Source: a virus
Length of the DNA: 18,404 nt
Strand: one strand, 5' to 3'
Virus genome (UHGV): UHGV-0256895
In this document: one piece after another, positions 4,434 to 17,921 of the stretch
Numbering within the stretch: the first letter of the stretch is position 1
Layout of the letters: every line of letters starts with the position of its first letter
Position numbers and translations under genes: made by a program
Notes under the pieces: generated by a model
What the model saw: only the letters and a program-made list of their open reading frames with translations
Database searches by the model: none
What the model was told of the DNA's origin: nothing

Positions 4434-4949
4434 TCAGAGGCCGAGGGCGTTGCGGTGCGCTTCCATCAGGTCCACACCGTCCACAATTTCCACCATGTTG
4501 ATAAGGTCCACTTCATAGAGCACCTCACCATTGATGGTCAGCTTCGCGTAGCTGTTGGTACTGGTCACTTTGGTGGTGTTGCTTTCGCCCGTCTTCCACT
4601 CGCCGGAATCCACTTCTTTGTGACGTCCACGCACCACAAGCTCCACGGCCTGCACTTCCCCGGTATCGTCACGCTGGATAGAGCCGGTAAAGCGCAGCTG
4701 AATGCCATCTACCGTGGCTTTGCCCATCTGCTTAAACAGCAGCAGTTCAGTACCACCAATGGAAAATTCTGTGTCCAGCGCACTGTCATCAAGCCCCAGA
4801 TCCACATCCACTGCACCCGGCATTCCGCCGCCGCGATACTTCTCATATTTGCGGGTGAATTTCGGCAGCGTCAGCGACTCAACGATCCCCTGCCAGTTGT
4901 TCCCGTCGTTAAACAGGTTCAGATGTTTTAATTTGCGTGGTAAAGCCAT
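4434..4949 (-). CDS. FII: Tail tube protein gpFII
   Basis: 171 aa ORF (MALPRKLKHLNLFNDGNNWQGIVESLTLPKF...), between sheath and E; size and sequence consistent with P2 FII. Confidence 0.9.
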   Translation of the reverse strand: MALPRKLKHLNLFNDGNNWQGIVESLTLPKFTRKYEKYRGGGMPGAVDVDLGLDDSALDTEFSIGGTELLLFKQMGKATVDGIQLRFTGSIQRDDTGEVQAVELVVRGRHKEVDSGEWKTGESNTTKVTSTNSYAKLTINGEVLYEVDLINMVEIVDGVDLMEAHRNALGL

Positions 4950-5235: not shown

Positions 5236-5315
5236 GCTTCTGCCATTGTGTCCGTCAGCACCTGCGCCGTGCGGGTGTAGTTTTCGAAGGCAAAAAGCGG
5301 ATCATCGCTCAGACA
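5236..5315. repeat. Left copy of a perfect 80 bp inverted repeat inside FI (native-orientation copy)
   Basis: Plus 5236..5315 is the exact reverse complement of 5518..5597 (checked base by base, 80/80); encodes [27 protein letters not shown] in the minus-strand sheath frame. Confidence 0.9.
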
Positions 5316-5517
5316 TGCACTTGGTCTGCGTGCCAAAATTGATGAGCAGACCGGGTGGCACAAAAGCCTGTCCAACGTGGGCGTGAACGGTGTCACCGGA
5401 ATTTCTGCAGATGTGTTCTGGGATCTGCAGGACCCGGCAACCGATGCAGGTCTGCTGAACCAGAACGACGTCACCACGCTTGTGCGTAAAGACGGTTTCC
5501 GCTTCTGGGGTTCCCGC

Positions 5518-5597
5518 TGTCTGAGCGATGATCCGCTTTTTGCCTTCGAAAACTACACCCGCACGGCGCAGGTGCTGACGGACACAATGGCAGAAGC
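5518..5597. repeat. Right copy of the perfect 80 bp inverted repeat inside FI (inverted copy)
   Basis: Reverse complement of 5236..5315; encodes the same 26 residues on the plus strand, continuous with the inverted segment 5317..5517. Confidence 0.9.
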
Positions 5598-6248: not shown

Positions 6249-6266
6249 TGTACCGTTATTCACACA
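6249..6266 (-). promoter_or_regulatory. Candidate Ogr-type late promoter element (TGT-N12-ACA) for the FI-FII-E-T-U-D operon
   Basis: TGTACCGTTATTCACACA, centred about 85 bp upstream of the FI start codon (6172); P2 late promoters carry this dyad near -55. The motif alone is expected by chance a few times in 18 kb; position is what supports it. Confidence 0.4.
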
Positions 6267-6314
6267 AAATGACGGTATTTGTCTACTTGCAGGGATAATC
6301 AAAATAATGCTGAT

Positions 6315-6887
6315 TCAGGGGGATTCATTACTCTTATTTGCCGGAAATTTTCTATAAATTGTGGAAACACCCACATCAAAAATCAGTGCAATACGCTGTC
6401 TTGATTCTCCGGCCTCGAGTAAACGCCCAATCTGTGCCCACTGTTCGGTGGTCAACTTAGGACGGCGTCCACCTACTCTGCCTTTGGCACGAGCTGCAGC
6501 CAGCCCTGCCCTGGTACGTTCAACTATCAGTTCGCGTTCCATTTCAGCCAGGGCACCCATGACATGAAAAAAGAAACGGCCCATTGGGGTACTGGTATCA
6601 ATACTGTCAGTCAGGCTTCGGAAATTCACACCACGCTGGCGCAACTCCTCTATCAGCGTAACAAGATGCCGCATACTGCGCCCCAACCTGTCCAGCTTCC
6701 AGACAACCAGCGTGTCTCCTGCCGATAGTGTCCTGAGCAGCTTTTTCAGCCCCGGTCTGTCGGACTTAGTGCCACTGATTTTATCCTCAAAAATCCGCTC
6801 ACATCCCGCGCAGTTCAGTGCATTACGTTGCAAATCGGTGTTCTGGTCATTTGTTGACACGCGTACATAGCCAATAAGCATGATCAT
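6315..6887 (-). CDS. Serine DNA invertase of the Gin/Pin/Cin/Hin family
   Basis: 190 aa ORF starting M(IM)LIGYVRVSTNDQNTDLQRNAL..., the characteristic N-terminal catalytic motif of the invertase subfamily of serine recombinases, with a C-terminal HTH-like region; true start may be the third Met (6881). Located beside an invertible tail-fibre segment. Confidence 0.85.
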   Translation of the reverse strand: MIMLIGYVRVSTNDQNTDLQRNALNCAGCERIFEDKISGTKSDRPGLKKLLRTLSAGDTLVVWKLDRLGRSMRHLVTLIEELRQRGVNFRSLTDSIDTSTPMGRFFFHVMGALAEMERELIVERTRAGLAAARAKGRVGGRRPKLTTEQWAQIGRLLEAGESRQRIALIFDVGVSTIYRKFPANKSNESP

Positions 6888-6936
6888 CCCCCTGAATAAA
6901 AACCGGAGATGATGCCAGTTAGCCGTTATCTCTGCA

Positions 6937-6962
6937 TTTTCATAAACGTTGGTTTGGGAGAG
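6937..6962. other. Invertase crossover site 1 (gix/hix-like, 26 bp)
   Basis: TTTTCATAAACG TT GGTTTGGGAGAG: two AAAC/GGTTT half-sites around a central dinucleotide as in hixL/gix; sits between the invertase start and the silent tail-fibre segment; matches site 2 at 19 of 26 positions in inverted orientation. Confidence 0.6.
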
Positions 6963-7298
6963 GGAGCAAAATTAGGCGCAGCGGTGTGTGTGGCCGGCTC
7001 TACAGGCTATATGACTATCCCGGCAATGGTCGCCGGGAAAGAACGGGTGATCATATTGCAGTGGTTTGGTGCTGCTACAACTGATTATGTGACACCAGTA
7101 ACTGCGAATTTCCCTATTGCATTCCCAAATGAGTGCATGATTCCGTTATTTAGTGATGTATCAACTGGGGCAGTTGATTTGAGTTCTACAGCCGCATATA
7201 GCTTAGCGGTGGGCCGATCATACTATACGACGGTAACAAGAACTCAGATTACATGTGCTGGCTACGGTGGCTTTAGAGTTTTCGCGATTGGATGGTGA
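6951..7298 (+). CDS. Silent alternative tail-fibre C-terminal segment (Sv'), no start of its own; would fuse to the constant part of H after inversion
   Basis: Plus frame from the crossover core gives [69 protein letters not shown]...GFRVFAIGW, sharing ILQW, FPIAFP and GGF..FA.G motifs with the expressed H C-terminus. The track ORF 6909..7298 covers it. Confidence 0.6.
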
Positions 7299-7303
7299 TT
7301 AAT

Positions 7304-7723
7304 ATGTTTTATTCTGCAAAAGAAAATGCGTTCTACGCTGATGAGCTAAAAAGTATTTATGAAAATGCAGGTAGCTGGCCTGACGATGCCGTTGAAGTAG
7401 ACTATTCCGTATTCGTTGAGTTTGCCGGAGAATCACCTAACGGAAAATTACGCGCTCCTAATTCTGATGGTTTACCTGAATGGATAGATATTCCCGAACC
7501 AACTGAAGAGGAAATTATTGCGTTGGCAGAAGCCGAAAAATCGCGACTGCGTGCTTCAGCTGACTCTGAAATAGAATGGCGGCAGGACGCCGTTGATGCG
7601 GGGATCGCGACGGAAGAAGAAACTGTTTCATTAGCCGAATGGAAAAAATACCGGGTGCTGCTGATGCGAGTTGATACAGCAGACCCGGACTGGCCTACTC
7701 CTCCGGCGACTCAGGCCAGTTGA
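7304..7723 (+). CDS. Alternative tail fibre assembly protein (Tfa, U'-like), silent orientation
   Basis: [28 protein letters not shown]... parallels the N-terminus of the expressed Tfa ([30 protein letters not shown]...); lies directly after the silent fibre segment. Track ORF starts 4 codons earlier at 7292. Confidence 0.7.
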
Positions 7724-8126
7724 TATCTGGTGCGCTGGATATGTCCACAGATTCCAGCGCATCGAGATAATCCAGCCACTCGTTATACTGGGCCTTCTCG
7801 TCGTCTGTAAGTCGCCCCAGCGCAGCTTTACCCGGCCACTGCTTGCTGTTTATATACTCATTAGCCTGATCGATACGATACTGTTTTTCAGCTTCAGCTG
7901 CTGCGATTTCCTCCTCATGGCTTAAAGGTGGAATGTCTACCCATGCCGGCATTCCATCCTCAGTAGCTCCACGAGTTTTACCCTCTGGTGGCATCCCCGA
8001 ATATTCAGTGAATGTCTCATCTGAGACGGCTATGAGATCGTCAGGCCAGTTTCTACTCGCTTCATAAACATCTCTGAGCTCATCAGGGTAGAAAGCGTTA
8101 TTTAATGCTGAATAAAAATAAGCCAT
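7695..8126 (-). CDS. G: Tail fibre assembly protein (Tfa, gpG / Mu U-like), expressed orientation
   Basis: 143 aa ORF immediately downstream of the tail fibre gene; Tfa-like N-terminus; converges on the alternative Tfa with a 29 bp 3' overlap. Confidence 0.75.
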
Positions 8127-8129
8127 TTA

Positions 8130-9545
8130 TTAATACCCCACAGCAAAATAGTTAAACCCGCCAGCGCCGATGGATGATTCAGCGTTGGTTCCTGTCTGAT
8201 AAGCGCGTAGCTGGAAATTAGTTCTCGTAAAATCCTGGGCGGTTAACGCAAAACCTTGACCTGTACCGCCAACACTCTGGTCTGTTGCAACAACACATAG
8301 CGCCCTGGTTGGAAACGCAATCGGGAATGATACTGTTTCTGGGGATGTTTTCGTTTTGGCTATTGCCCATTGAAGAATTAACCCGCCTGGCAGGTATTGA
8401 TACCCCGAATCGGCTCGCTGATTACCAAATGAAGACATGTCCGGAATCTGTCCGGAACCAGTGCCAACATTTTTTTTTGCCGCATCTCCTAAACCAAGGT
8501 ATGCGAGAAGACCAGCGACATCCTTTCCACTCAAATTAGTCAGCGTATTGTCCAGCGGTTGTTTACCTGCCAGCGCATTAAGCATTGTCGTGGCAAAGTT
8601 CGGATCATTCCCCAACGCCGACGCCAGTTCGTTCAGTGTATCCAGTGCCGCAGGTGCAGAACCTACCATTGCTGCAATCGCCGATTTCACAAAAGCCGTG
8701 GTGGCAATCTGTGTATTGTTGACCGACTGTGCAGCAGTGGGGGCTGTTGGCGTTCCGGTGAGTGCCGGACTCGACAACGGCGCTTTCAGTGCCAGCGCAT
8801 TGTTAATGGTGGTACTGAAATTCGGATCATTGTTAATGGCTGCGGCTATTTCTTTCAGCGTGTCCAGCGTGGCTGGCGCACCATTAATAAGAGCCGTCAG
8901 TGCCGCCTGAACAAACGCGGTGGTCGCAACCTGCGTGGTGTTATTCCCTGCCGCTGGAGTTGGCGCTTTTGGTGTCCCGGTAAACGTCGGACTTTCTTTG
9001 GGTGCATACTGTGAATGCGGGTCCGGTGCGGCAAGATGTTTTGCCATCTGATCATCCACGTACACCTTCAGCTCCAGTACCTTGTCATCCACATACTTGC
9101 GGGTTGCCAGCACTACGGCAGGGTCGATTTTCAGGGTGATATTGTCCGTGCTGCTGGTAATCAGCACCATGCGCACGGTCTGGGTACGCCCGCTGCCTTC
9201 AGCCAGTTGCGGCTTATAGCTTTCCGGGCAGTTGCCCACGGCAATCAATGCCCCGGACTCATCAAACAGGCCCACTTCACGTATCCACCAACCGCCCTCG
9301 TTTTCAGGGATCACCTGTTCAGCAATAATCTGGCTGCTGTTCTGCGGGTCGATATAGAGCATATTCAGCGCAGCCCGGCGTTTCTCATTTACCAATGCTG
9401 TCTGCTTGGCGTCCGGCGTTGGCAATGTTCCGCCGCCATCGCCCACCGCCATATGGGTAATTTTTAGCGGCACACCGAGCGCGGCGGCGCTGGCAAGTTT
9501 CGCCGCGCCAATATCCGTCAGCAGGGTATAAAATTTTGTGCTCAT
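8130..9545 (-). CDS. H: Tail fibre protein gpH (constant N-terminal part plus currently expressed variable C-terminal segment)
   Basis: 471 aa ORF; N-terminus MSTKFYTLLTDIGAAKLASAAALGVPLKITHMAVGDGGG... is typical of P2-type fibres; two tandem repeats of about 72 aa; crossover site embedded about 116 codons from the stop. Confidence 0.85.
   Translation of the reverse strand: MSTKFYTLLTDIGAAKLASAAALGVPLKITHMAVGDGGGTLPTPDAKQTALVNEKRRAALNMLYIDPQNSSQIIAEQVIPENEGGWWIREVGLFDESGALIAVGNCPESYKPQLAEGSGRTQTVRMVLITSSTDNITLKIDPAVVLATRKYVDDKVLELKVYVDDQMAKHLAAPDPHSQYAPKESPTFTGTPKAPTPAAGNNTTQVATTAFVQAALTALINGAPATLDTLKEIAAAINNDPNFSTTINNALALKAPLSSPALTGTPTAPTAAQSVNNTQIATTAFVKSAIAAMVGSAPAALDTLNELASALGNDPNFATTMLNALAGKQPLDNTLTNLSGKDVAGLLAYLGLGDAAKKNVGTGSGQIPDMSSFGNQRADSGYQYLPGGLILQWAIAKTKTSPETVSFPIAFPTRALCVVATDQSVGGTGQGFALTAQDFTRTNFQLRAYQTGTNAESSIGAGGFNYFAVGY
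8484..8509. other. Invertase crossover site 2 (gix/hix-like), inside the tail fibre gene at the constant/variable boundary
   Basis: ATCTCCTAAACC AA GGTATGCGAGAA on the plus strand; inverted relative to site 1; falls on the GLG codons of H (..LAYLGLGDAAKK..), the point where the silent segment (..[12 protein letters not shown]..) would join in frame. Confidence 0.6.
8556..8990 (-). repeat. Tandem duplication of about 72 codons inside the tail fibre gene
   Basis: Protein segments ..NTTQVATTAFVQAALTALINGAPATLDTLKEIAAAINNDPNFSTTINNALALKAP and ..NNTQIATTAFVKSAIAAMVGSAPAALDTLNELASALGNDPNFATTMLNALAGKQP are clearly homologous. Confidence 0.7.
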
Positions 9546-12015: not shown

Positions 12016-12033
12016 TGTGTGGTAAATGACACA
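12016..12033 (-). promoter_or_regulatory. Candidate late-promoter dyad (TGT-N12-ACA) upstream of V
   Basis: TGTGTGGTAAATGACACA, centred about 55 bp upstream of the V start codon, which leaves almost no leader if the P2 geometry holds; overlaps the putative promoter and 5' end of the opposite-strand cargo ORF. Motif alone is weak evidence. Confidence 0.3.
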
Positions 12034-12064
12034 AATACAATTCCAATCAAAGAAAGGTAAAAGA

Positions 12065-12595
12065 ATGAGCCATCCAATTGATTATTACGCTATAGAAGAA
12101 CACGCAAGAATAATTGAGCAATTATGCTGTTCATCTGAATTTTATTTACAGCGTATATATTCCACACAGAAAGTATATGATGGTTCTATAGTAACTGAAT
12201 TTGAAATGGAGGAGTTATCGTACAACGGATGGTTGGAATATACCATTAGCAACAATCTTATTAGCCTTTGTACAAAACTACGAATTCTCCAAGACACTAG
12301 TGAACATGAGTGGAACCCAGATTACTCACCTGAGAAAGAAGCATTTGAAGAACATGAAAATATACTTTTTGTTATAGATGGTCATGTTAAAGATTCTATA
12401 CGCGAATGCTGCAATAAAATTATTCACGCATTAAGTTTTGAGTTAACAAAAAAGACCGGCAAAAATGGAATAAAATATTGGGACGGTTCTATTATTGCTT
12501 CTGGGGTTCAAAACAAAAAAAACTGGAAAATTAAAATAGACCTTTTCCCTTTTTGCCAAAGCATAAAAAGTTATTTAAGTTTATTAAGAGCGTAA
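12065..12595 (+). CDS. Hypothetical protein, AT-rich cargo (moron) ORF in the S-V junction; function unknown
   Basis: Track ORF 12026..12595; the RBS-supported start is ATG 12065 (GAAAGG 7 nt upstream), giving a 176 aa soluble, acidic protein (MSHPIDYYAIEEHARIIEQLCCSSEFYLQRIYSTQKVYDG...). Strongly AT-rich and on the opposite strand to all flanking tail genes; no similarity I recognise. Confidence 0.6.
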   Translation: MSHPIDYYAIEEHARIIEQLCCSSEFYLQRIYSTQKVYDGSIVTEFEMEELSYNGWLEYTISNNLISLCTKLRILQDTSEHEWNPDYSPEKEAFEEHENILFVIDGHVKDSIRECCNKIIHALSFELTKKTGKNGIKYWDGSIIASGVQNKKNWKIKIDLFPFCQSIKSYLSLLRA

Positions 12596-15475: not shown

Positions 15476-16068
15476 TCAGCGGCTATCATTGCGCAGTCTG
15501 CGCTCCAGCTGCTGTTTGTCTTTTTTCACGCCACAGCGGGGATCGAGCTGTAACGCATGGTTGAGATGATTAAGGGCGGAAGCCGGATTACTTTCACTCA
15601 GGACAGCGCCAATCGCTTTATGCAGACGCGCCCGTGACTGGTCCGGCATATCCAGACCGTCTGTCAGCTCCAGCGTCTGCAGCAGCAGATCGACATCAAA
15701 GCCGGTAGTGGCAAGCATTGCGCTCTGCGCTGCGTCTGCCATTTCCTCTGCCAGCACGGTCTGCACGTTGCGGTTACCCAGCGGCATCACCCAGCCATGA
15801 CGCAGGGCATGACGCCCGATCTCCAGCGCTCCGACATAATCTCCGGCATCAATGCGCCACAGCATCACGTACATCAGCACGTCATCCTGTTGAGCGCCTC
15901 CGGCAGCCAGGACACCCTCCGCCCAGGCGGCGTATTTCGGCAGCAGCTCCACCTTGATTTCCGCTTTTTTGACCGTGGACTGAACGCCCTTGAGACGGCG
16001 GCGGTCTTCTGCCAGTTGCAGCAGCATCAGGTCATAGCCCGACGCGTGGCGAACGCTGCGCGCTGCTG
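15476..16068 (-). pseudogene. M: Terminase small (endonuclease) subunit gpM body; first 18 codons are separated from it by the N/M inversion
   Basis: Minus frame ..SAARSVRHASGYDLMLLQLAEDRRRLKGVQSTVKKAEIKVELLPKY.. is gpM-like from 16068 down to the stop at 15476 but has an in-frame stop just upstream of 16069; the native start (MSLSPARQHRLRVQAECQ) lies on the plus strand at 16276..16329. The track ORF starts at the internal Met 16027. Confidence 0.7.
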
Positions 16069-16272
16069 ATCACCCGTCTGGATAACCTGTCCATTTACTG
16101 GCAGGAAGACACCCGCCGCCGTTCGGTTATCGACAACCCGAAACGTGACCGGATTGAAAATTTTGAATCCGTTAACGAAGCCTATGTGGTTGAGGACTAC
16201 CGCTGCGCCGCACTGGTGGAAAACATCCAGATTGGCGACTTCAGCGCCGCCGCAGCAGAAACCGGAGCGTAA
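16069..16272 (+). other. N: Displaced C-terminal 67 codons of capsid gene N, on the opposite strand
   Basis: Plus frame ITRLDNLSIYWQEDTRRRSVIDNPKRDRIENFESVNEAYVVEDYRCAALVENIQIGDFSAAAAETGA* matches the remembered C-terminus of P2 gpN; the frame is open without a start codon and is absent from the track. Confidence 0.7.
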
Positions 16273-17047
16273 ACCATGAGCCTGAGTCCCGCACGGCAGC
16301 ATCGCCTGCGCGTTCAGGCTGAATGTCAGACAGCAGCTCACGACCGCAAATCACCACCAGATCGTCATCGTCCTGGTAGACCACGTCGATAAGCTCATTG
16401 ACCGCATCCATCACCACGGCGTCCAGGTTGGCATATTCGCCACCTTTCCCGACTTTCACCGCACCCGGTGTGGTTTCACCGCCCGTGGTGGTGCTGCCCA
16501 TGACGTGATCCGGTGCATCCTCACGGATTTTCTGCAGCCAGCCTTTGTTCACATCCTGCAGCAGCGGGTTTTCGCTACGGTTGGAGGTTTTCGCACGCTT
16601 CACGCCGTTAAAGCCGATCATGATGCGGTCCAGTGCCTGGCGTTTCACGATGGCGTCACGGATACGCACCTGGAAATCCTGAAACTTCGCCCACAGGTCC
16701 AGCTTCGCGTAGGTCAGCACCGTGTCAAAGTTGGTCTGTTCGCATTTGTATTCCACATCGATCATCAGCGTCGGATCGACAGGTTCACGCTCTTTCGCGG
16801 TGGTGTCAGTGGTTCCGGCAATGGTGCTGCCAACACCCAATCCAAGCAGCTGACCGGACTGCTCAGTCACTGGCGTGACGTTAATCAGCGTCAGGAAAGC
16901 GGCGGACTGCTGGATCTGGTCTTCCAGCGTCTGCTGCACAGACGGCTCTACGGTGAACTTGCTGGACAGTTCCTCAACTGCCACACCGTTCAGACGCGCC
17001 AGTTGCTGCAGGTAAGCGTTAAAAGCAAAACGGGTATTCTTCTTCAT
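16241..17047 (-). pseudogene. N: Major capsid protein gene N, N-terminal 239 codons intact; C-terminus displaced by the inversion
   Basis: Track ORF 268 aa; MKKNTRFAFNAYLQQLARLNGVAVEELSSKFTVEPSV...LVVICGRELL is gpN-like to about 16331; the last 29 codons (SDIQPERAGDAAVRDSGSWFTLRFLLRRR) are antisense of the displaced M start and N end. Confidence 0.8.
16276..16329 (+). other. M: Displaced first 18 codons of terminase small subunit gene M, on the opposite strand
   Basis: ATG 3 nt after the displaced N stop, MSLSPARQHRLRVQAECQ, resembling the gpM N-terminus; joins in frame to the minus-strand M body through the inverted repeat when the segment is re-inverted. Confidence 0.6.
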
Positions 17048-17063: not shown

Positions 17064-17807
17064 TCAGCAATTGGTCAGAGTGTCAGCGGGGGCGTTGCCG
17101 CCTGTTGCACGCTGGCGGTAGTCCTGGCGGCTGTCTTCATGACTCAGCTTATCCACCAGTTCGTTAAAGGCGGTTTGCTGCTCCTGCAGAGCAGTCTCCA
17201 GCTCAGACAGGCGTTCTTCCTGCTCAGACAGGGATTTTTCGGTGCGCGTGCTCAGGTTCTGCTGCTCAGTGGCGACCAGTTCCACGGCCTTATGCACATC
17301 AGAGAACCGGACGTCATCGGACTGCTCTTTTTTGGTAAACAGCGCCGTGACGCGGGCAAACAGGGACGGCTTGTCCTCCTGGATTTCTTCCAGTTCGATC
17401 ACCGTTTCCTCTGCAGCGGTAAAAAGATTGGCAGGATTCTGCTTGCGGTTTGCCAGCGGGTTATGGGCTGCACTGGCGCTGAATGTCAGCATTTCCGTAC
17501 CCAGACTGGCGGGATCATCAGTGGCAGCCAGGCCGACCAGGTAGGCTTTGCCCGTATCAGCAAACTTCGGGCTGACTTCCATAGAGGTGAATAATTTCTG
17601 GCCTTTTTTCACCAGTTCCACCAGGGACTCCGTTGGCTCAACGTCGGCATACAGTGCCATCTTGCCTGCCAGCGGACCTTCCGCGATTTCTTCAGCAAAC
17701 CCTGCGGTTTGTGTGGTTGTCGGTACAAATACCGCGCATTGTTTCACTGCCCCCATCACCGCAACCATAAGGCTCCAGTAAGTTTTTTCTAACGGAGCAC
17801 GGCTCAT
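17064..17807 (-). CDS. O: Capsid scaffold protein gpO (body); native 5' end uncertain
   Basis: Track ORF 17064..18029; from about residue 108 (..GFAEEIAEGPLAGKMALYADVEPTESLVELVKKGQKLFTSMEVSPKFADTGKAYLVGLAATDDPASLGTE...TGGNAPADTLTNC) it is clearly gpO-like. Upstream of about 17710 similarity is lost; the first 74 codons of the track ORF are antisense of terminase P. Confidence 0.7.
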   Translation of the reverse strand: MSRAPLEKTYWSLMVAVMGAVKQCAVFVPTTTQTAGFAEEIAEGPLAGKMALYADVEPTESLVELVKKGQKLFTSMEVSPKFADTGKAYLVGLAATDDPASLGTEMLTFSASAAHNPLANRKQNPANLFTAAEETVIELEEIQEDKPSLFARVTALFTKKEQSDDVRFSDVHKAVELVATEQQNLSTRTEKSLSEQEERLSELETALQEQQTAFNELVDKLSHEDSRQDYRQRATGGNAPADTLTNC

Positions 17808-17853
17808 GACAGTGAAAGCAAAGCGTTTTCGCATCGGGGTGGAAGGTGCCACT
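17806..17853 (+). other. O: gpO N-terminal motif encoded on the opposite strand (possible third inverted fragment)
   Basis: Plus ATG 17806: MTVKAKRFRIGVEGAT matches the gpO N-terminus as I remember it (MAKKVSKFFRIGVEGDT); after codon 16 similarity ends. The 52-codon frame (to 17964) is too short for the track. Confidence 0.45.
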
Positions 17854-17921
17854 AGAAAGTTGCAACCGTTCACAGCTGGAAAAAACGCGACAAGTGGGGT
17901 GACTATGGGCCGCTGGATCAG

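Follow-up and report, generated by a model that had tools for sequence, protein, structure and literature searches.

The window, by which we mean the whole stretch of 18,404 nucleotides analysed here, shares 99.9% identity with the LF82 prophage as annotated and carries its tail genes in the order of the P2 family, V-W-J-I-H-G followed by FI-FII-E-T-U-D. Between G and FI lies an accessory slot, which holds fun(Z) in P2 and an invertase module in Fels-2. The earlier note had placed the module of the window where P2 has Z/fun, and this is exactly its position (Table 1). The invertase ORF occupies the minus strand at 6315-6887. Read from the first ATG, at 6887, it would give a protein of 190 aa, yet translation probably begins at the second (6881, 188 aa), where the start of the identical LF82 protein has been annotated. 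A domain search placed Pfam Resolvase on residues 5-137 (E 2e-53) and HTH_7 on residues 140-183, the Gin crystal structure 3UJ3 was matched with E 8e-93, and the Ser9 motif RVSTNDQ aligns to Gin residues 7-13. Over 180-185 residues, identity is 87% with PinE, 85% with Fels-2 Fin, 79% with Cin and 76% with Gin; the invertase of the LF82 prophage Cartapus is 100% identical. Membership of the Gin/Cin/Pin/Hin (Din) group is supported by these sequence comparisons. Enzymes of this group are small (about 185-195 aa), with the Ser9/10 nucleophile in an N-terminal catalytic domain and a helix-turn-helix at the C-terminus, and its founding members can replace one another in function. They act on 26-bp sites built of two imperfect, inverted 12-bp half-sites about a 2-bp core, and their catalysis depends on Fis, bound at two places in an enhancer in cis, and on supercoiling. 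A serine invertase of the Gin/Pin/Cin family next to a segment of about 1.55 kb had been proposed, and the domains, Ser9 and the identities bear this out, the segment measuring 1547 bp. Matches to a sigma-70 promoter for the invertase, and to a terminator 3' of the late operon, were no commoner than in shuffled sequence. The promoter and terminator scan found nothing stronger than a weak hairpin at 6901-6920, and the region upstream of the sheath gene, aligned with the P2 pF promoter region, was too diverged to inform.

Table 1. Features of the invertase and tail-fibre locus, in window coordinates.
Feature	Position	Strand	Remarks
Serine DNA invertase	6315..6881	-	188 aa; Pfam Resolvase + HTH_7
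Putative Fis-dependent recombinational enhancer	6792..6863	-	Invertase gene +19 to +90; homology to P1 element
ORF matching Gp53-like_C	6909-7298	+	Pfam; contains silent tip
Invertase-proximal 26-bp crossover site	6937..6962	+	TTTTCATAAACGTTGGTTTGGGAGAG; core TT 6949-6950
Silent fibre tip Hc'	6951..7298	+	115 codons + stop, without own start; Pfam Gp53-like_C, PHROG tail-fibre families
Silent tail-fibre assembly chaperone Tfa'	7292..7723	+	Pfam Caudo_TAP, E 1e-33
Expressed tail-fibre assembly chaperone Tfa (P2 G equivalent)	7695..8126	-	Pfam Caudo_TAP, E 2e-38
Expressed variable fibre tip Hc	8130..8495	-	Residues 351-471 of H; Pfam Gp53-like_C
Distal 26-bp crossover site inside H	8484..8509	-	ATCTCCTAAACCAAGGTATGCGAGAA; core 8496-8497, TT on minus strand
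Constant N-terminal part of H	8498..9545	-	Residues 1-350; Pfam Phage_tail_fib N-terminus, E 3e-65; outside segment

The segment consists of a silent tip and chaperone followed by an expressed chaperone and tip. The complete H ORF (8130-9545, minus strand) joins a Phage_tail_fib N-terminus to Gp53-like_C, with Tfa directly downstream on the same strand. Hc and Hc' are 43% identical, as are Tfa and Tfa'. The segment had been said to hold two alternative fibre C-termini and two alternative Tfa chaperones, and the domain matches agree, with Gp53-like_C and Caudo_TAP each found twice.

The two 26-bp sites lie where the earlier note had put its inverted hix/gix-like elements, and when one is reverse-complemented they are identical at 19/26 positions, as it had stated. 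The inverted repeat reaches 35 nt, and the two sites, inverted relative to each other, have an identical non-palindromic TT core when oriented alike (the minus-strand reading of the distal site is TTCTCGCATACCTTGGTTTAGGAGAT). Their fit to the family consensus had been suggested as a check. At up to 3 mismatches, the Gin/Cin/Pin/Hin consensus TTCTCNNAAACCNNGGTTTNNGAGAA matches just these two places in 18.4 kb, with 3 mismatches at the proximal and 2 at the distal site, where 0 matches are expected (200 shuffles). The departures of the proximal site include a G for C beside the core. No further crossover site was found in the window even at up to 5 mismatches; a shufflon or Min-type multiple inversion, with three or more sites, was rejected on this count. 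With respect to the reading frame, the cores had been assigned to a shared Gly-Leu-Gly codon triplet. Inversion is indeed in frame, but the core forms positions 2-3 of the preceding codon (GTT Val, CTT Leu), and Gly-Leu-Gly is encoded next to it by the inner half-sites. Likewise, the frame is kept in the proposed swap of the last ~116 residues of H, but the exchanged tip is of 121 aa in the expressed orientation, giving a fibre of 471 aa, and of 115 aa in the other, giving 465 aa. Inverting the segment in silico yields an open, in-frame H of 465 aa, which agrees at 454/465 residues with H as annotated in E. coli Ecol_224; Hc' itself is identical at 114/115 residues to the tip expressed there.

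The closest layout is that of Fels-2 (Salmonella LT2, Felsduovirus; Fin), whose gene order is identical: sheath FI, invertase, H' fragment, G', G, H, I. As in the window, the first of two Din-type sites is on the 5' side of the invertase gene and the second falls within H, and the two phages share a genus through Cartapus (PMC9928086). The core is TC/GA in Fels-2, as in gix, and TT/AA in the window, as in pix, cix and hix; the Fels-2 segment is larger (about 2.7 kb) and its tips are unrelated. The closest named invertase is that of e14 of E. coli K-12 (PinE, P segment). The proximal site of the window is 25/26 identical to the pix site adjoining pinE, the TT/AA core is common to both, and in the e14 segment, too, stf tips and tfa chaperones form convergent pairs. 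Unlike the window, e14 is a defective lambdoid element and not a myovirus of the P2 type, with fibre genes that are in part pseudogenes. Inversion in e14 has been verified experimentally, and inversion in e14 and in EPEC P2-like prophages has been demonstrated by sequencing and PCR (PMC4272514). In the Mu Gin/G and P1 Cin/C segments, as here, a constant fibre N-terminus lies outside and two opposed sets of tip and chaperone inside, the invertase is outside the segment and the enhancer lies in the 5' coding region of its gene (putatively so in the window). Mu also resembles the window in that the 5' end of the invertase gene faces the near site, the first Fis-like site being about 96-97 bp from the site centre. 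In P1, by contrast, the site overlaps the 3' end of cin instead of lying 5' of the gene. Mu and P1 further differ in invertase identity (76-79%), segment size (3-4.2 kb) and tip families.

For the enhancer, a stretch homologous to the Cin enhancer of the P1 annotation is present at 6792-6863 with no indels. It is 78% identical to cin, compared to 68% for the rest of the gene, a difference confounded by coding constraint. Synonymous divergence is lowest in the first 30 invertase codons (0.27 versus 0.40) as part of a 5'-to-3' gradient, and since this coding sequence is conserved anyway, the homology to the P1 element is confounded as well. Fis-like 15-mers are centred near 6853 and 6804 (core positions were set by alignment to gin and cin and by the positions in hin), and one 15-mer of the putative enhancer fits the degenerate Fis pattern. 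Judged from the letters of the DNA, Fis may bind here, and we infer that the invertase system depends on it.

The state opposite to that of the window exists in nature. A cassette 99.7-99.9% identical is flipped in the E. coli chromosomes Ecol_224, MS6192, NCTC11023 and CH468 (sequence-checked), all four of which have the H-side junction TTCTCGCATACC-TT-GGTTTGGGAGAG. On the far side, the junction in Ecol_224 reads ATCTCCTAAACC-AA-CGTTTATAAAAA. The flipped junctions combine an outer with an inner half-site, as predicted, and map the crossover to a 7-bp interval around the core. In the viral contig L061 the flipped cassette adjoins an intact invertase, and in CM151386 and CUWW10 the cassette is unflipped. 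The different cassette of LF82 Cartapus, served by an identical invertase, is found in one state in 60 complete genomes and in the state flipped in silico in 26, the flipped junction matching FDAARGOS_1372 and G3 at 100% over 301 nt. Additionally, IMG/VR contains three further clusters of cassettes that are found either way round, and swapped inner half-sites can be read in L049 versus L063, the sole IMG/VR pair where the half-sites differ. The earlier note had named in advance the lack of the alternative orientation as the finding that would speak against a switch; public genomes hold the flipped state, with the hybrid junctions predicted.

In the lineage of the window, the parts could nonetheless be a complete but frozen relic, in which weak sites, a dead enhancer or a silent invertase have ended inversion and fixed the fibre. 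Locked derivatives are known, as the Ecol_224-type prophages have lost the invertase gene and the enhancer and kept both sites. The three consensus mismatches of the proximal site and the want of an invertase promoter above chance could be read in the same way, and a Logan contig from the matching run is continuous through the distal site in the orientation of the window. Against this, the invertase is 100% identical to that of Cartapus, which up to 6961 and from 8491 also has the same outer half-sites and flanks, and the Cartapus cassette stands in both states among close genomes, with junctions 100% identical in each. Moreover, the deviant proximal half-site TTTTCATAAACG is the half-site used in e14 (PMC4272514). 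Loss of inversion is very improbable. An exact-pattern scan of genome and metagenome contigs gave no match to the invertase-side junction of the window. In the source population, reads spanning TTTTCATAAACGTTGGTTTAGGAGAT and TTCTCGCATACCTTGGTTTGGGAGAG would be markers of switching.

We thus have little doubt that the locus is a working inversion switch of the Gin/Cin/Pin/Hin (Din) family, lying among the tail genes of an E. coli prophage of the P2 family that resembles Fels-2 (Felsduovirus). Its anatomy, the fit of the sites, the continuity of the frame and the existence of natural genomes in either orientation, with the crossover mapped to the site centre, are established. In the mechanism proposed, dimers of the invertase would bind the two 26-bp sites and form an invertasome with the Fis-bound enhancer in the 5' end of the invertase gene, ~97 bp from the near site. 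Both sites would then be cut at the central TT/AA dinucleotide and the ends rotated and rejoined, inverting 1547 bp. Since the distal site lies inside the fibre gene H, inversion would give H the 115-residue tip, with its own chaperone, in place of the 121 residues at its end and the chaperone downstream, so that a population of lysogens would release virions of two receptor specificities. Fis dependence, the switching rate and the receptors are the parts of this scheme that we infer.

The sites could have a second role. From the invertase side, the window is base for base LF82 over 1364 nt up to 6961, and again from 8491 over at least 1710 nt (checked through 10200); between these points its cassette has almost no nucleotide similarity to that of LF82, with one 181-nt match at 73%. 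The cassette appears to have been swapped cleanly, with the sites as its limits. The reverse is seen in CM151386, where cassette and sites have 5 differences in 1573 nt and the flanks are 20-33% divergent from 8-15 nt outside the sites. Clean swaps were also found in the IMG/VR contigs L025, L034/L036/L055 and L043/L050, where unrelated cassettes stand between flanks identical over 400 nt on either side, and unrelated cassettes are carried by 52/76 of the locus pairs whose flanks are at least 97% identical. The cassette of the window itself is found in at least 3 other backbones. Food for thought, tentative as it is, is that the 26-bp sites may also serve as exchange junctions through which whole cassettes of tip and chaperone pass between otherwise unrelated P2-type backbones. 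Exchange could proceed by rare intermolecular double crossovers made by the invertase between co-resident phages, and would then be a natural counterpart of recombinase-mediated cassette exchange. Alternatively, the same picture would result if short-homology recombination took place in the conserved 35-nt repeats and selection then kept intact cassettes. That the mosaic breaks so sharply at the sites suggests a way in which temperate phages exchange cassettes for host range, and if the invertase drives the exchange, a classic enzyme would have a second evolutionary role.

Such a boundary could also be made by an assembler that joined, at the short sites, a backbone and a cassette from different P2-like prophages, in which case the combination would not be natural. 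The window comes from a metagenome scaffold, the identity to LF82 breaks off at the sites, three artefact-like blocks lie elsewhere in the window and no complete E. coli genome has this backbone together with this cassette. However, the identical 471-aa hybrid H occurs in an ENA scaffold and a Logan contig (which may be one sample), and the equally clean swaps in IMG/VR, the frequency of unrelated cassettes between near-identical flanks and the other backbones of this cassette all count against an artefact. A chimera of this kind is very unlikely, and the architecture of the switch would be the same either way.

The three blocks are reverse-complemented (5236-5597, 16060-16323 and 17701-17854) and look artefactual. 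We rejected them as products of the invertase: none is bordered by Din-like sites, and they carry deletions and are absent from an otherwise identical public scaffold. An exact-pattern scan of viral contigs gave no match to the sheath inversion junction. The blocks are unrelated to the switch; if they were real, no virions would be built and the switch would have no phenotype in the window copy. The sheath, capsid and scaffold genes are broken in this copy, which would suit an inversion mainly of benefit to the bacterium, for example through a fibre or chaperone variant that hinders other phages, as reported for the PinQ and PinR segments of cryptic prophages; PinQ-driven inversion in a cryptic prophage is reported to inhibit T2 adsorption (PMC12529663). 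Yet the structural genes are all intact in the public scaffold, LF82 makes Cartapus virions (PMC9928086), and matched pairs of tip and chaperone are encoded in a complete late operon. There is only the slightest chance that the switch chiefly serves the host.

The earlier note had called the switch known biology, and it is: the same layout is found in Fels-2, and for a P2-like prophage of EPEC E2348/69 two-state inversion was shown experimentally by whole-genome sequencing (PMC4272514). In the paper on the LF82 prophages (PMC9928086) the terms 'invertase', 'inversion' and 'tail fiber' are absent. The value of the locus is mainly confirmatory, as the sites, the frame logic and the position of the enhancer can be read from it and both states are already in public genomes. 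The switch is ordinary apart from its rare pair of fibre tips. Among 50,697 phage records both tips are at most 54% identical to anything, and the silent tip has almost no relative there. The cassette is essentially absent from these records and present in just 7/5426 complete E. coli genomes. Such rare tips are a possible source of new receptor-binding modules for P2-type phages or tailocins.

Direct Fis dependence and a putative enhancer apart, the switch shows each defining feature of the Din family that could be checked, and is a further member of this family rather than a shufflon. The earlier note had read it as known biology and was correct: this is ordinary biology, accurately described. 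The invertase (Table) belongs to the Gin/Pin/Cin family, sharing 87% identity with PinE, 85% with Fels-2 Fin, 79% with Cin and 76% with Gin, and matching Gin structures at E about 1e-92. We scanned the whole window with the family consensus TTCTCNNAAACCNNGGTTTNNGAGAA, a search that found the known gix (Mu) and cix (P1) sites at their annotated boundaries. Only two matches were obtained, the left site with 3 mismatches and the second with 2; 200 shuffles gave none. Both of the hix/gix-like sites proposed before are therefore present as the sole consensus matches. Written in the same sense they read TTTTCATAAACG-TT-GGTTTGGGAGAG and TTCTCGCATACC-TT-GGTTTAGGAGAT, with 19/26 identity, a common non-palindromic core and inverted orientation, and the left one shares 25/26 positions with the e14 pix site beside pinE. 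A shufflon was ruled out, as there are just these two sites in the window even at up to 5 mismatches.

Table. Features of the switch, of the surrounding late region and of related loci (L096, ENA metagenome scaffold; L001-L004, E. coli loci)
Feature	Position	Strand	Remarks
Serine recombinase	6315-6881/6887	-	Resolvase and HTH_7 matches
Putative Fis-dependent enhancer	6792-6863		Homologue of P1 cin +19 to +90, aligned without indels
Left 26-bp site	6937-6962		Consensus match
Fibre-tip fragment	ends 7298	+	Silent tip
Silent chaperone	7292-7723	+	
Expressed chaperone	7695-8126	-	
Fibre gene H	8130-9545	-	
Second 26-bp site	8484-8509		Within H
189-aa ORF	12026-12595	+	Opposite strand, between baseplate V gene and tail completion genes
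Reverse-complemented block 1	5316-5597 (5236-5597 with the duplication)		Relative to LF82 and L096; disrupts sheath FI
Reverse-complemented block 2	16060-16323		Relative to LF82 and L096; disrupts junction of small terminase M and capsid N
Reverse-complemented block 3	17701-17854		Relative to LF82 and L096; disrupts scaffold O start
E. coli Ecol_224, MS6192, NCTC11023, CH468 (L001-L004)	4521-4680		Locus positions

The earlier note proposed looking for both orientations in a population; across public genomes both states are found, with the predicted hybrid junctions. Of 5426 complete E. coli genomes only 7 contain the 1521-bp cassette interior (97.6-99.7% identity), and in the four checked (Ecol_224, MS6192, NCTC11023 and CH468) the cassette is reversed relative to H and sheath. 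Junctions in the flipped genomes, read on the H side in Ecol_224 and NCTC11023 and on the far side in Ecol_224, are the hybrids predicted from the window's half-sites, and they confine the crossover to 7 bp around the core. One viral contig (L061) carries the cassette at 99.9%, flipped, beside an intact invertase, and CM151386 and CUWW10 hold it in the window's orientation. Cartapus, the P2-like prophage of E. coli LF82, has an identical invertase; the 301-nt junction of its cassette, flipped in silico, matches FDAARGOS_1372 and G3 at 100%, and the flipped state is found in 26 genomes versus 60 in the LF82 state. Of the 80 IMG/VR loci with this invertase, 56 have exactly two sites, and the offset of the proximal site is constant. 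Three cassette types there are present in both orientations, and in the one pair with differing inner half-sites (L049 and L063) these are swapped as predicted. Inversion has been shown experimentally for e14 and P2-like prophages of EPEC (PMC4272514), and programmed inversions have phage tail genes among their recognised targets (PMC9881135).

The proposed in-frame swap of the H C-terminus holds as well: after in-silico inversion of 6951-8495, H stays open throughout at 465 aa, and 454/465 residues (114/115 in the tip) match the H annotated in Ecol_224. The cores had been placed on a Gly-Leu-Gly triplet. This triplet is encoded by the inner half-sites of both copies, but the core dinucleotide itself supplies the last two bases of the codons GTT (Val, silent copy) and CTT (Leu350, expressed copy). 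The expressed and silent tips are 43% identical, as are the two chaperones. The cassette is rare: among 50,697 phage records the expressed tip has at most 54% identity to any, and the silent tip has one weak partial match only.

A search of the 5' end of the invertase gene, suggested in the earlier note, located a homologue of the Cin enhancer annotated in the P1 record, to which Fis would be predicted to bind. Identity is higher in this stretch than in the rest of the gene against cin (78 vs 68%), gin (72 vs 66%), pinE (87.5 vs 75%) and fin (83 vs 72%). Across 25 non-redundant genes, codons 7-30 have a synonymous divergence of 0.27, vs 0.40 downstream, within a 5'-to-3' gradient. Two 15-mers, +22 to +36 and +71 to +85, have the terminal G and C and are one base off those in gin and cin. 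The nearer one is centred ~97 bp from the site centre, as in Mu (~96 bp) and Hin (about 100 bp; PMC3798978).

In the same gene, a perfect 12-nt inverted repeat, ATTCAGGGGGAT / ATCCCCCTGAAT (6313-6324 and 6886-6897), pairs the Shine-Dalgarno region with the last codons and stop. Some relatives keep it, with one compensatory change (L053, a comparison locus) and, in several, G-U pairs; it is broken in others, and the 197-aa subfamily, pinE, fin, gin and cin lack it. It may be due to chance or reflect long-range mRNA pairing that restricts translation.

In the four E. coli loci L001-L004, 633 bp are gone (window equivalent 6296-6928), and with them the invertase gene together with the putative enhancer inside it; these loci are locked derivatives, with the cassette in the flipped state and both sites retained. 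Resident Pin-type invertases should be unable to rescue switching, because the enhancer acts in cis.

Cassette and backbone are inherited independently. LF82 and the window show zero differences over 1364 nt up to 6961 and over 1710 nt from 8491, and almost zero nucleotide similarity between these limits. CM151386 differs from the window at 5 positions in 1573 nt (cassette and both sites), and its flanks reach 20% and 33% divergence, beginning 15 and 8 nt beyond the sites. On both sides the mosaic boundaries thus fall some 15 nt or less from the 26-bp sites (window 6923-6961 and 8491-8516), and equally sharp ones are seen in L025, L034, L036, L043, L050, L055 and L094. The 58 loci with an invertase sharing 85-100% identity with that of the window hold 48 distinct cassettes, and of 76 locus pairs whose flanks are at least 97% identical, 52 have unrelated ones. 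As the window comes from a metagenome scaffold, it could conceivably contain a chimeric join at the sites, although the same hybrid H is encoded in two assemblies. The boundary pattern fits cassette exchange at the sites, which could proceed by the invertase acting between molecules or by short-homology recombination. E. coli Combat11I9, KW21 and an IMG/VR contig (H68, H69 and L092) share with the window, at ~97%, no more than the left 60% of the cassette (6963-7871: silent tip, its chaperone and ~150 nt beyond), which suggests that about half a cassette can reassort alone.

The window, the late region of a P2-family prophage, matches Cartapus at 99.9% identity across 88% of the window's length; Cartapus is P2-related, near Fels-2 (PMC9928086). 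The five switch features all lie between the sheath gene and H; P2 has fun(Z) in this slot between G and FI, and Fels-2 the same invertase module, so the module does sit where P2 has Z/fun. The minus-strand TGTGTGAATAACGGTACA (6249-6266) fits TGT-N12-ACA, the dyad of the Ogr/activator site at late promoters of P2. By direct reading, this match precedes the sheath start by ~90 nt and follows the invertase stop; therefore the module appears to occupy the interval that separates the H-G operon's end from the F-operon promoter. Alignment of the sheath-upstream region to P2 pF was uninformative.

ENA metagenome scaffold ERZ28659622 scaffold_333 (L096) equals the window at 100% except in three reverse-complemented blocks, each with adjacent deletions of 16-148 bp. 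At the first there is also an inverted duplication of 80 nt, perfect in sequence (5236-5315 / 5518-5597). The borders have no Din/hix-like sites and little or no microhomology; none of the 5426 E. coli genomes has any such arrangement, and IMG/VR lacks the sheath inversion junction. The blocks probably reflect artefacts of assembly or amplification, or sequence alterations, and have no bearing on the switch. The 189-aa ORF gave no match in a Pfam search; it falls in PHROG 18838 (function unassigned), is annotated as hypothetical in LF82, and is possibly a moron.
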